Assembly (NCBI GenBank): GCA_963769935.1
Contig: CAVYNY010000013.1
Location: forward strand, 192,001 to 256,000
Length of the DNA stretch: 64,000 bases
Direction: 5' to 3'
Source: an uncultured delta proteobacterium
GTDB lineage: Bacteria; Desulfobacterota; Desulfobacteria; Desulfobacterales; JAFDCJ01
Position numbers and translations under genes: made by a program
Shown: one piece after another, positions 6,193 through 11,728 of the stretch
Layout: every line of letters starts with the position of its first letter
How positions within the stretch are numbered: the first letter of the stretch is position 1
Notes under the pieces: model-generated
Seen by the model: only the letters and a program-made list of their open reading frames with translations
The model's database searches: none
Told to the model about the DNA's origin: nothing

Positions 6193-6726
6193 ATGTTAAA
6201 ATCATTAATTGTCGCGATGGCATCCAACAGCGTTATCGGCCACAACGGTGGAATCCCCTGGAGGATTCCGGGGGAACAGAAAATGTTTAAAGAGATTACC
6301 ATGGGGCATTCATTGATTATGGGCCGGAAGACATACGAAACCATCGGCCGGGCGCTCCCCGGCAGGACCAACATCGTCATTTCCCGCCAAACCGACTATG
6401 AGGCCCCGGACTGCATCGTTGTGAATGACTTAAATAGTGCTCTGCAAGCCTGCGATCCCGATGAAAGCGAGGCTTTTATCATTGGCGGGGGGCAGATTTT
6501 TCGGGACACTATTTCTTCGGCCGATAGAATTTACCTGTCCGTGCTGCCAAGGGAGGTGCACGGTGACACCTATTTTCCCGCGTTTTCCGAGTCGGACTTC
6601 GAGATCATAAAGTCCGGCTTCATCGACGCGGTCGTGCCATACTACTTCTACATATATGAGCGGATAAATGGCAGTAAACGCGAGTCTGTTTCGCTTTCCC
6701 TGTCCGAAGCATCGAATTTTTTATGA
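6193..6726 (+). CDS. folA: Dihydrofolate reductase
   Basis: IVAMASNSVIG..GGIPW, IMGRKTYETIGRALPGRTNIVIS, IIGGGQIF, GDTYFP; GAGGAG RBS. Confidence 0.96.
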   Translation: MLKSLIVAMASNSVIGHNGGIPWRIPGEQKMFKEITMGHSLIMGRKTYETIGRALPGRTNIVISRQTDYEAPDCIVVNDLNSALQACDPDESEAFIIGGGQIFRDTISSADRIYLSVLPREVHGDTYFPAFSESDFEIIKSGFIDAVVPYYFYIYERINGSKRESVSLSLSEASNFL

Positions 6727-6790
6727 GGGGCAGAGCGATGCCTTAGAATTGGAAGAATAAGAGAGACGGGTACTTTACCCCAACGTTGCA

Positions 6791-6887
6791 AAAGCCGGAG
6801 GGCTTCAGAGTCAAGGCGTCTGAGGGTGAAGTCGTAGTTCTTTACTTCGAACCCTCAGCAACGCAGAATCTGAAGTCCTCGGGCTTT
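6791..6887. mobile_element. MITE-like imperfect palindrome (~97 bp)
   Basis: AAAGCCGGAGGGCTTCAGA pairs with TCTGAAGTCCTCGGGCTTT, with an inner TGAGGGT/ACCCTCA stem. The core CAAGGCG...GCAACGCAG is shared (inverted) with 17087-17242. Confidence 0.65.
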
Positions 6888-6897
6888 CCCCGGATGC

Positions 6898-7108: not shown

Positions 7109-7748
7109 TGGTGTTTTTGCCCTGTTTGTTTTCGGAAGGCTCAATAAACACTTTCTCTGTGCACCAAGGTGTAGACAAGAATTGAATTTGGACTCATAAG
7201 TTATTTTTTAACATGATATCATAAGGTTAAATTGAAACCCGATTGCTGGACATCTAAATTCTGGAAATCACACCTCCGAGAAATTAATCCGAATAAATAG
7301 AAAGATGGAACGGACGACTCCGTTACCCAAACAGTGCAATTCTGGCAATCGCTGTGCTTTGACATAAATTGTGGCTGCGGTGCCTGTGTTCCCACATTGG
7401 TTTCTTATCTCCAACTTAGAAATAAAAAAAGCTTATTGCCCATATCTTGCCAGTATATGCAAATTGGCCTGAGTACATATACGTTTCGTAAATATCACGT
7501 GAATCAAAGCTATCAAATTCTGGGATAGCAGCAATCTGCATTTCTATGATTTATAATTTTTGCCACCGACAGGGGGATTTATCCCCCTGTACCCCCTGAT
7601 TTCTTTTTCCCCGATAGGTATGCTATCTGATATTCAACAGCCCTACGCTACGTTCAGTCCGCTCATACGCTGCCGGCTATCGCTTCGGCAGCTACTCGCT
7701 CCCCTCACTGCGCTTCGGGCCTAAAGGCAGTGCCAAGGGTACAAGGGA

Positions 7749-9152
7749 TCAAGGGCCAAGGGCAACGGACCTGGAGAGGCGAAAGCCGAAATCGCTTAGG
7801 CGGCGGCCGAGCCAGTCGGAGTCGCGGCTCGCCGACCGGCAGAGGGGAGCATCGCAGCCCCAGCAGCCGCCGCGCATCACGCGGACAGCGCCTCTGGGTT
7901 TATCGATCCAGGCACTTCCGTCATCAGGTGCACCGTTGTAGTCCTTATGCCAGTCATCTTCTACCCATTCCCAGACGTTGCCGTGCATATCGTAAAGACC
8001 CCAGCGATTAGGCTTTTTAGTTCCAACCCGATGTGTTTTGGAATCAGAATTTGAACTAAACAATGCGTATTCTGTCAACTTATCCGCGTCGTCTCCAAAG
8101 GAGAACGAAGTCGTTGTTCCCGCGCGCGCTGCATACTCCCACTCAGCCTCGGTCGGCAATCGGTAGGCTTCGCCTCCCTCCATCTCGTTAAGCATATTTA
8201 TGAATTTGTGTGCATCCTCCCAGGAAACCTGTTCAACCGGACAGTCATCTCCGCATTTTTTAAAATTTGAAGGATTATCGAAATCCACCATTACCTTTTT
8301 CCACTGGCCCTGGGTGACTTCAGTCTTTTGCAAATAAAAGGGGCGTGATATTTTTACGGTATGAGAGGGATGCTCACTGGCTTCATCCATCCCAGAACTG
8401 CTGCCCATTGTGAAACTTCCCGCAGATATGAGAACAAACTCCATTCCAATACTGTTTTTGAAAGTTTTTGCGTATTTAGGTTGCAAAAGCGACCAACCTA
8501 TAACGCTGAGTATTGCGATCACCGCTATAGCGACAATTCCAAGGGTTAACCTTTTTTGACGCCGTGATTTTGGGCTGGGAATGGACGGTCGTTCATCAAC
8601 GATTTTGCCTTTAGTTTCTTTGTTCGTACGCTGAACCACAGCATTGCGCTTTAGGTCTTCTTTGTGCTTTCCTTCGACCTCCGCATCTTTCCGCTTCAGT
8701 TCCTTTTCTGCTTTAAGTTTTGCCGCTTCCTTCCGCTCTCGTTCCTCTAACTCAACTGGTGGTTTACCGAGGATACTTACGATGTCAGTGACTAATTTCT
8801 GATACCCAGGGAAACTATCCGAGCCATCCCAATCAAATAGCTGCCCAGCATGAATGCCTTCAAACCGGAATGGAAGATCAACTTCCTCAATTGCAATTGG
8901 CACCAGTTTATTGCGATTCAGAGCAAAGGTGGCCTCATCTTTAACATATCGCGAATTGACTGAAAGTTTCGACCACATAACGATAATGCACTTGGCATCA
9001 TTTAACGCTCTCTCAATGGAATCATCAAAGTGTTCCCCTGCACGAAGTTTGGGGTCCCACCAGACTGACCAACCCGACTTTTGAAGCGCATCCGCCAGCT
9101 TTCTTGCCAGTGGCTGTTCTTCGCGCTTATAACTGATGAATATGTCGCTCAT
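7749..9152 (-). CDS. TIR domain - charged linker - transmembrane helix - FGE-sulfatase (C-type lectin fold) protein
   Basis: N-terminal DIFISY...WWD...WSKLSVNSRYVKDEA (TIR_2); hydrophobic LTLGIVAIAVIAILSVIGWSLL; FxMGS, TEVTQGQW, RLPTEAEWEYAARAG, GLYDMHGNVWEW, RGGxW, GFRL. Confidence 0.93.
   Translation of the reverse strand: MSDIFISYKREEQPLARKLADALQKSGWSVWWDPKLRAGEHFDDSIERALNDAKCIIVMWSKLSVNSRYVKDEATFALNRNKLVPIAIEEVDLPFRFEGIHAGQLFDWDGSDSFPGYQKLVTDIVSILGKPPVELEERERKEAAKLKAEKELKRKDAEVEGKHKEDLKRNAVVQRTNKETKGKIVDERPSIPSPKSRRQKRLTLGIVAIAVIAILSVIGWSLLQPKYAKTFKNSIGMEFVLISAGSFTMGSSSGMDEASEHPSHTVKISRPFYLQKTEVTQGQWKKVMVDFDNPSNFKKCGDDCPVEQVSWEDAHKFINMLNEMEGGEAYRLPTEAEWEYAARAGTTTSFSFGDDADKLTEYALFSSNSDSKTHRVGTKKPNRWGLYDMHGNVWEWVEDDWHKDYNGAPDDGSAWIDKPRGAVRVMRGGCWGCDAPLCRSASRDSDWLGRRLSDFGFRLSRSVALGP
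7752..7892 (-). other. Putative DGR variable region at the 3' end of the TIR-FGE gene
   Basis: Only 9 A in 141 coding-strand nt, with an abrupt GC rise. NNC codons occupy most positions that are AAC/AGC in typical FGE-type template repeats. Confidence 0.7.
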
Positions 9153-9447
9153 ATCTCAACACTGGTCCGTCGGCTATTATTATGCATCTCGTTTTTAACT
9201 GTTTTTCACATAGCTTGCCAGAAGTCCAACTATCAATTTTTATACGATTAATGCAGATAGATTCCGTATGTCAGCACCCTATTTGTGTGAGAATCTGGTG
9301 TAAAATGGAAATGGCTGAATATGAGTGTTATCAGATTAAAAAGTATGAACCAGACCGCCGGCCGTACCGCAATGCTTTTTTGCCAAATTTGAATTTATCG
9401 CATATATCGGAAAGCTAATTACTCAGATACCTATCAATCGTCATAGA

Positions 9448-9684: not shown

Positions 9685-10721
9685 ATCGATCCTCCATCAT
9701 CTGAAATCCTCAGAATTTAAAGAATCTAATTAGCCTTATAACATAATGACAATATTGGTAAAGCGAGCATTTATTTCTGAAGAGATAATAATCAAAATCT
9801 AATGGGTCAGTGCCCTGAGAGCGATAAGGCAGCTGATTAAAGCAATCCGGATGGAATTTCGGCGATGATTTTGAACTCGCTTTAAAAAAATGAAGTGCCT
9901 CAACCAATATTTCAGACACATTGAATTGTTAAGAAAAACTTATTTGATGTGCTCTGAGTTTAGCTTGATTGCAGATAGCTTTTGCCAATAGTTTTAATTC
10001 GACGGTTATTGAAATCTGTAAAGATATAATTCGAATACCAAAACAATTTGGTACTGTCAAATAATGAATAATATTCAGACCAATCTATAATAATCCTATT
10101 CGCAATGACATCTCTATTTGAGTGATAATTGGATTTCCAGCGTCATTAACCCGCTATTGTGCCCTTTTCCTTAATATGGACAATCAAACAGGATTTTAAT
10201 CCATTTTTGGTCCTTTCAGACTCTTTTGACAGGCCGATCGAAAATTAGCCAGTGCAACAGCATGATTTTTGCATAATTGCCCTATTTTGGCCCTTTGGTG
10301 GATAATCAGCCAAGAAAGATAATGGAAAGCTTGAGGGGGGACTTCAAAAAATGAAAAAAAATGTCACAGTCGAAAACCCTGAGACATTTCGTATTTATCT
10401 GGATTATTTGATAATATTTAATTTCGTAAATTCTCTATTTTGTCTATTAATTCCAACGCTCCTTGAAGCATTGGGGCACCTCCTATAGCTATAATTTCCT
10501 AATCAAGCTTGCAAATATATAAAGAAGAGAACTCGCCTCGTTTCTCGCTGTGCCCTGCATCATGTTATTGTTAGCGGTATCGAGCGTCATCGCTGGGGAT
10601 AGATTCGAATCAGGCCTGCCGGTCCGGCAAATTTCCGCCAACGGGTAAAGCCCGCGGGTTATTGAGTTATTGCGCAGTTAAAAACCTGGGTTTCAGTGAT
10701 AGCGAATTATCAAGAAAGCTG

Positions 10722-10897: not shown

Positions 10898-11728
10898 TTA
10901 CTTTATGCCTGCATACATGAACGACTGGACGAACTGGCGCTGGAAAAGAAGAAAGGCCACAAGAAGCGGCGCCACTGATAACAAAGTGGCCGCGGAAATG
11001 ATGGACCAGTTTACTCCGGATTCCGGGGCCCCAAATATTCCCAGCCCGACAGTCAAGGGCCTTGTCTCCACCGAATTGGTTACGATGAGGGGCCAGAGAA
11101 AATTGTTCCAATGATGGCTGATGGACACTAAACCGTAAGCCAGGTAAGTGGGGCGCGCCAGAGGTACATATACTCGCCATAAAACACCCAGCGTACCGCA
11201 TCCTTCCAGGCGAGCGGCTTCTTCCAGTTCTTTGGGTGTCGATTTGAAGGCCTGCCTCAGAAGAAAGATTCCGAAAGCACTGGCCATGTATGGCAACCCG
11301 ATCCCGAGAATTGTGTCCACCAGACCCAATCGGGCCAGGGTAACGTAGTTTTCTACGATCAGAATTTCCGGTGTGATCATTAACTGGACCAGCACCAGCG
11401 CAAAGGCAATTTTGGCGCCGCGGAACTGATAGCGCGCGAAGGCATAGGCTGCCAGGGTGCACAGAACAAGCTGGGCAGCCAAAATTGTACTGACCAGGAT
11501 GAATGTATTCAACGCATAGCGTGGAAAAGGTGCCTGGGAAAGTGCTTCCCGAAAATTGCTCAGTGTCAACGGAGCCAGAAGCTTGAAATTGACGGCATAT
11601 TCGCCGGGGTGAAAGGCGGCCCAGAAAGCATATGCCAGGGGAGAAATCCAAAGCAAAGCCAGCAGCCAGGCCGCGCCCGTTTCCAACGATGTATGAAACG
11701 CCTGAGAAAAGGACCGTAAATCTTTCAT
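10898..11728 (-). CDS. Carbohydrate ABC transporter permease (UgpE-like)
   Basis: Multiple TM helices, EEAARLEG (EAA motif), HHWNNFLWPLIV. Confidence 0.92.
   Translation of the reverse strand: MKDLRSFSQAFHTSLETGAAWLLALLWISPLAYAFWAAFHPGEYAVNFKLLAPLTLSNFREALSQAPFPRYALNTFILVSTILAAQLVLCTLAAYAFARYQFRGAKIAFALVLVQLMITPEILIVENYVTLARLGLVDTILGIGLPYMASAFGIFLLRQAFKSTPKELEEAARLEGCGTLGVLWRVYVPLARPTYLAYGLVSISHHWNNFLWPLIVTNSVETRPLTVGLGIFGAPESGVNWSIISAATLLSVAPLLVAFLLFQRQFVQSFMYAGIK

Follow-up and report, generated by a model that had tools for sequence, protein, structure and literature searches.

The gene at 9152..7749 on the minus strand of the window, by which we mean the whole 64,000-nucleotide stretch analysed here, is best read as an intact but orphaned DGR target whose last 40 codons show a pattern of adenine-wise rewriting. 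We give this reading a probability of roughly 0.6. The protein is likely a single-pass receptor, in which binding of a ligand by the lectin tip would cluster TIR domains that would cleave NAD+.

Domain layout and predicted topology

The gene is a solitary ORF of 467 aa that comprises a TIR_2 domain, a helical spacer, a transmembrane (TM) helix and an FGE-type C-type-lectin-fold (CLec) domain; all features below lie on the minus strand unless stated. The TIR_2 domain (residues 4-120, 8793..9143; Pfam E 1e-23) is predicted to be cytoplasmic and contains Glu73 (8934..8936), the predicted catalytic glutamate, within YVKDE, and this residue is invariant in 62/62 aligned proteins. A long charged helix follows (residues 132-180, 8613..8759), serving as a spacer whose length and composition differ between relatives, and then the predicted single TM helix (residues 202-220, 8493..8549). 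The remainder is the CLec domain (residues 229-467, 7752..8468), predicted to be periplasmic and similar to TvpA (2Y3C), with an FGE-sulfatase Pfam match at residues 238-459 (E 3e-50). The initial annotation, which had read a TIR domain with its Glu, a TM helix and a C-terminal FGE-sulfatase domain from the letters, is upheld here.

The structure model built from the 62 aligned proteins (mean pLDDT 87.5) shows a long helix at residues 132-180, a disordered stretch at 181-206 and a helix at 205-222. Residues 202-220 are also the best hydrophobic window (Kyte-Doolittle mean 2.56), with KSRRQKR just before. Positively charged residues flag the cytoplasmic side of a membrane helix (positive-inside rule), and five Lys/Arg stand directly ahead of residues 202-220 versus two within the 15 residues after them. 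Since the positive residues are mostly on the TIR side, the TIR domain is predicted to lie inside and the CLec domain outside the inner membrane. With the TIR domain first in the chain, hydropathy thus suggests an N-in/C-out protein with a cytoplasmic TIR and a periplasmic CLec. The Toll-like topology that had been proposed for this gene therefore stands for the predicted outer domain, helix and inner TIR, but not for the domain order, which is reversed. A TM helix is present in only 36/69 relatives with TIR and CLec domains, which therefore occur in soluble as well as in membrane form.

The best solved relatives of the TIR domain are AbTir, the BtTir-type TIR 7uxr and RUN1, and the best ones are bacterial TIR NADases. 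Glu73 aligns with the Glu of the RUN1 WCLDE motif, which we take to be the catalytic residue. Judged by these alignments, the TIR of the window gene likely cleaves NAD+. The search for structural relatives also gave weak enterotoxin matches, which at E above 0.2 we regard as chance.

The gene stands between folA (6193-6726) and a sugar-type ABC permease gene (10898-11728), and the gaps on its two sides, of about 1.0 and 1.6 kb, contain no long ORFs. No partner effector or defence gene adjoins it, the protein has no STAND NTPase domain, and no MoxR/vWA or NTPase gene was found nearby. This housekeeping neighbourhood would suit a DGR-derived binder with no part in defence, that is, a membrane-anchored periplasmic sensor or adhesin in which the TIR is a signalling or scaffold module and which is one of several TIR-TM-ectodomain proteins. 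The genome has 24 TIR_2 matches, 8 of which are followed by a TM-like helix with different, unrelated C-terminal parts; moreover, cyanobacterial targets have been interpreted as proteins of signal transduction (PMC7517822), and the majority of cellular targets as binders attached to the membrane (PMC8144416). However, Glu73, the predicted catalytic residue, never varies among the aligned proteins, repeats of this family are also found at the tips of NACHT/STAND and metallophosphoesterase-NACHT proteins, and the TIR matches defence-system TIR models, all below any cut-off (searches of curated anti-phage systems in PADLOC and NCBIfam returned only partial TIR matches of this kind). We regard a role outside defence as unlikely, but as one that deserves to be kept in view.

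Some further features of the locus and genome may be noted here. One genomic TIR is fused to an acyl-carrier-like domain (C39:23108-23590). A non-coding element of ~100 bp upstream of the gene (9210-9312) has five genomic copies (three on contig C34, the others on C9 and C38) and also occurs in the congener G018. On C34, truncated tyrosine-integrase fragments are found close to the copies, one of which stands ahead of a further TIR ORF; the element is possibly an insertion-site or island-end sequence gathering such genes. Non-coding sequences at 10007-10467 and 6774-6890 have copies elsewhere in the genome as well (75% to C9; 97% to C33 and C31). Promoter and terminator scans stayed at chance level.

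Signature of the variable repeat

The last 141 nt of the gene (7752-7892) contain 9 A, whereas the rest of the gene is 30.4% A (binomial p 2e-12). This count had already been given in the initial annotation, and it turns out to be unique, the window gene being the only one of 3146 genome ORFs of >=300 aa with <=9 A in the last 141 nt. Codons ending in C account for 28/42 in the tip versus 21% upstream. The variable codons quoted earlier are all present, but the statement that every variable codon is N-N-C does not extend to Leu452 and Asp454.

The variable repeat proper (7771..7892) is homologous to DGR template repeats, from which it differs in an adenine-centred way. Relative to the two nearest templates, which are non-cognate, the tip is changed at 20/28 and 20/27 A, and at 13/85 and 14/86 other sites. 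Non-A mismatches to template amount to 16/92 for the window gene versus 39/92 for the control, the genome's own FGE paralogue on C39. Across 16 family repeats, the templates have A at 30/45 variable columns and at 1/77 fixed columns. The window tip departs from the fixed family scaffold at 3/77 sites, the same number as a cis target. In addition, codons for identical residues keep the same synonymous codon in 130/156 cases in the tip and 447/987 upstream, over 11 relatives that are not independent and with the search-pattern tail left out.

A constant 3′ tail (7731..7770) lies at the target/template divergence point and may be IMH-like, and its short CCCTTG repeats continue beyond the stop codon. 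A 7-bp GC-rich hairpin with a 10-nt loop (7669..7692), 56 nt behind the stop, is a candidate cis-acting homing hairpin; 13/23 family flanks have it in perfect form, two of its pairs show compensatory changes, and it is missing in 4/23, one of which is an incomplete flank. Homing of BPP-1 requires a hairpin behind the repeat (PMC3240598). The scaffold, the 3′ tail and the covarying hairpin are common to the window tip and 16 other repeats. A second perfect inverted repeat with 10-bp arms (7569..7590, strand unassigned) closes the shared 3′ flank, and folding of the whole flank was not significant (z -1.7). The distal part of the flank was also seen in genome G009 (L021 1465-1618), behind a TIR protein without a CLec domain.

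A metagenome scan by the constant 3′ tail yielded 12 loci, which combine varied N-termini (NACHT, STAND, metallophosphoesterase, TIR) with one tip scaffold and vary at codon positions 1 and 2. When GTDB genomes were searched for sequence resembling templates, 47 loci with 45 A-rich matches emerged, and many of these matches adjoin DGR-type RT and Avd genes. On these sequence comparisons, the window tip is a DGR-type variable repeat, and templates of its family stand in complete DGRs of other genomes. The CLec fold, the adenine-centred template differences and the 3′ tail with its hairpin (tail and hairpin judged from sequence and covariation) are among the traits by which a DGR target is recognized, and all of them are present; in the genome, neither a cognate template nor a DGR RT or Avd was found.

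The CLec domain is closest to PvdO, the top match by sequence and fold, and to the DGR target TvpA of Treponema (2Y3C; E 2e-31 by sequence, rmsd 2.5 Å by fold), whose aligned C-terminal stretch covers the window tip. The PvdO match could be taken to mean that an FGE/PvdO-like periplasmic enzyme was fused to a TIR and ends in an A-poor stretch by chance, with no DGR link, and Cys433-x4-Cys438 of the window allele indeed lines up with the FGE cysteine pair. However, Cys433 is at a variable site, on a template-A codon, and occurs in 2/62 relatives, and the pair was rejected as an FGE active site because it is not a family trait. Moreover, the three-residue insertion that follows the pair in FGE is missing, and the PvdO model scores 141 bits against a cut-off of 500. 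An enzyme of this kind would also leave unexplained the conservation of scaffold, tail and hairpin at the nucleotide level, and the template match in the relative G411 (below). The enzyme explanation is largely refuted by the G411 target, the codon choice and the family columns, and we consider it highly improbable. The window allele has three cysteines in this part of the tip, Cys430, Cys433 and Cys438 (7791-7867, codons 430-438), and Cys433 and Cys438 might bind metal or form a disulfide.

Cassettes in relatives and the state of the tip

The relative G411, a deltaproteobacterial MAG (CAVOPT010000007.1), has a complete HRDC-Avd-RT-template cassette, whose cis target is a NACHT-like CLec protein with an end like that of the window gene. 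On the same contig, 459 kb from the cassette, lies the solitary TIR-TM-CLec gene P0031. Its tip is changed relative to the G411 template at 19/30 A and 5/94 non-A positions (19 and 3 for the cis target), and among 43 templates it fits that of its own genome best, with 5 non-A mismatches and 12 for the next. In this one genome, sequence matching points to the TIR-TM-CLec architecture as a template-matched remote target. No second template was found among 60 relatives of G411. A cassette almost like that of G411, with a template 89% alike, is present in G412 (L064), a genome titled Bacteroidales, through either horizontal transfer or mis-binning.

The genome of the window gene presents a different picture. 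The initial annotation had reported no template repeat, RT or Avd in the window, and none was found in the whole assembly either. The template repeat that was to be sought by blastn against the full genome did not appear, as a permissive blastn and a scan with A as wildcard found only the window gene itself. Searches for the DGR RT and Avd families were empty; the 7 translated ones among 10 RT matches in the genome all look like the group II intron type. With the G411 RT as query, matches reach no more than 24-29%, with the G411 Avd there are none, and a cassette-type HRDC gene was not found in the genome. For an assembly of 41 contigs and 96.7% completeness, absence of the machinery is likely, not certain. 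The best template for the window allele leaves 13 non-A mismatches, whereas 21/39 same-locus template/target pairs have none.

Relatives were searched in the same manner. No template of the window's family was found in 23 genomes of the genus, and the only DGR-type RT among them belongs to a complete DGR of G018 with another template family; this DGR (L033, G018:C1192) consists of a CLec target, Avd, RT and template, followed by a metallophosphoesterase gene. A strict template pattern had no match in 401 genomes of the order or in viral contigs, and a looser one matched 2 viral contigs, both target-like. In a phylum sample (16/401 genomes matching), the closest template among the 14/19 loci compared had 27 non-A mismatches. 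Of the earlier proposal that the gene is a remote DGR target, the variable repeat and the existence of a matched remote target in G411 are retained, but not the template, RT and Avd in its own genome; a template of the family is present in G411, where it matches P0031, and none was found in the own genome or the 23 congeners.

Contigs from four runs of one study differ from the window tip by 0, 0, 1 and 2 changes, identity being counted only where the tip is covered; contigs drop rare variants, and the window itself may stem from one of these runs. Nothing but fragments and a mixture of relatives came from runs X5-X8, and they were left out. Tip changes are no richer than changes in the rest of the gene. 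One falls on the first base of codon 444, which is A in 43/43 templates, and the other run-contig change is not on a template-A position; P0122 has a single change at codon 442, a template-A codon. Single tip changes on template-A positions thus number 2/3, too few for a test. Tip alleles differ by single bases and not by homing-like blocks, and in four other clusters of near-identical relatives the tip is fixed or nearly so. With 0-2 tip changes per run, the contigs do not bear out current hypermutability of the tip, as proposed in the initial annotation. The missing template, RT and Avd, together with a nearly unchanged tip in the contigs of four runs, indicate a target that is orphaned and looks frozen.

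A target that is still active would require a cognate cassette that is unassembled, mis-binned or present in part of the population. The incomplete assembly in 41 contigs leaves room for this, trans targeting is seen in G411 and has been reported for Thiohalocapsa (PMC10907252), and two of the three single tip changes are on template-A positions. But neither template, RT, Avd nor cassette-type HRDC gene was found in the genome, the window's template occurs in 0/23 congeners, and the alleles lack the many simultaneous differences of homing. We consider an active target rather improbable.

In accordance with an orphaned state, one could also suppose a decaying relic, on which selection ceased once the link to its DGR was lost. 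Deleted copies exist: the G018 copy (L016 1485-2147) has lost most of the TIR and spacer in one deletion and the CLec core in another, the latter apparently at short microhomology, with the tip and 3′ flank intact, and the P0036 lineage is without a TIR. Presence is patchy, with any match to the tip in 3/22 congeners; the named close relatives of the gene are Desulfobacterales, to which the host probably belongs too. Moreover, near-identical copies differ mostly by residue-changing substitutions, as 5/6 placed changed codons outside the tip alter the residue (effects read by hand), a weak hint at relaxed selection. Nevertheless, the frame, Glu73, the TM helix, the scaffold and the hairpin of the window gene are all intact, its structure model is confident, and the gene recurs in the four runs. 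A relic is, in our judgement, very unlikely.

The near-identical sister proteins P0036 and P0129 of the window gene, in which most of the TIR is missing, differ at 2/231 residues upstream and at 15/48 in the tip, where a canonical scaffold has taken the place of a decayed one in the 3′ part. In these protein sequences the difference looks like a rewriting event, a chimera being the alternative.

Proposed mechanism and known systems

According to our preferred reading of an intact but orphaned target, the latest rewriting of the tip would have taken place in an ancestor, or through a transient DGR cassette, with fixation afterwards. It may nonetheless stay rewritable, since it departs from the fixed scaffold at no more sites than a cis target does. 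Self-association is what activates TIR enzymes. A ligand bound in the periplasm would bring copies of the protein together, and the clustered cytoplasmic TIR domains may then cleave NAD+, leading to NAD+ depletion and cell death, or to a signal of ADPR type. The role could be defence against phage or other invaders. As a tentative generalization, which we think might well prove wrong, Desulfobacterota may carry solitary membrane-spanning TIR receptors with their own homing signals and a rewritable periplasmic tip, frozen in the absence of a retroelement and re-diversified in trans by an entering cassette. Such a gene would be a one-gene analogue of a Toll-like receptor, with intermittent adaptive specificity and a path from outside recognition to inside NAD+ cleavage.

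If this is true, a signal would pass through the inner membrane and reach a TIR enzyme, and DGR surveys that require a neighbouring RT (PMC8144416) would miss a reservoir of orphan targets. According to PMC10907252, cellular DGR targets outside pathogens have neither a known ligand nor a known output. Whether a DGR-diversified CLec acts as an antigen receptor becomes directly testable with a sensor that consists of one gene and has an output open to assay (TIR, Glu73), together with the cognate cassette of the relative G411.

TIR-CLec DGR targets and the idea of adaptive sensors have already been published (PMC8195603, PMC10907252, PMC7517822). Among the closest parallels are cellular DGR targets of clade 5 in multicellular bacteria, for example those of DGRs 1-9 in Thiohalocapsa PB-PSB1 (Dore et al. 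2024, PMC10907252). These targets share with the window gene an FGE-type CLec tip and the use of TIR among effectors (the DGR 2 target is CHAT-TIR-CLec); they also include remote and trans targets and a non-diversified remote target (DGR 1), and they are proposed to be antigen sensors. Some have a TM helix and a periplasmic CLec as well. However, in that account the TIR target is predicted to be cytoplasmic and lies inside a DGR locus, and the TM-bearing targets are NACHT or MoxR-linked. In the window gene, a single helix is predicted to separate TIR from CLec, there is no NTPase, MoxR or vWA neighbour, and no DGR was found in the genome. According to the supplement of the same study, RT, FGE and TIR genes occur together in a Desulfobacterales bin.

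The TIR-CLec protein AUT00751.1 of Nostoc sp. CENA543 is likewise a DGR target with a TIR and a C-terminal CLec; it is one of the cyanobacterial DGR variable proteins, among which remote targets are dispersed (Vallota-Eastman et al. 2020, PMC7517822), and the idea that the machinery is dropped once a variant has been selected was put forward in that work. Its row lists TIR and CLec and mentions no TM; its DGR is in the same genome, and it belongs to another phylum. STAND-CLec and MoxR-vWA conflict systems (2020, PMC7159879; 2021, PMC8195603) also have a C-terminal FGS/CLec behind effectors such as TIR, with a DGR nearby or elsewhere, and have been proposed as analogues of adaptive receptors. 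Those accounts place them inside the cell, as sensors whose central part is a STAND NTPase or vWA/MoxR; the window gene has none of these. The closest solved DGR target, Treponema denticola TvpA (PDB 2Y3C), has the same FGE-type CLec fold and a C-terminal variable stretch; unlike the window protein, it is a lipoprotein without a cytoplasmic effector domain and is encoded with its own DGR (PMC10907252).

A solitary single-pass TIR-TM-CLec DGR target was not found in the literature searched, though figures and supplement tables may show one. Animal Toll-like receptors have an N-terminal leucine-rich-repeat ectodomain and a C-terminal TIR. They share with the window protein the predicted layout of an outer binding domain, one helix and an inner TIR, whereas the window protein has the reverse chain order, no leucine-rich repeats and an enzyme-type TIR with Glu. 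The likeness to Toll-like receptors is therefore one of analogy, and not of homology of the receptor.
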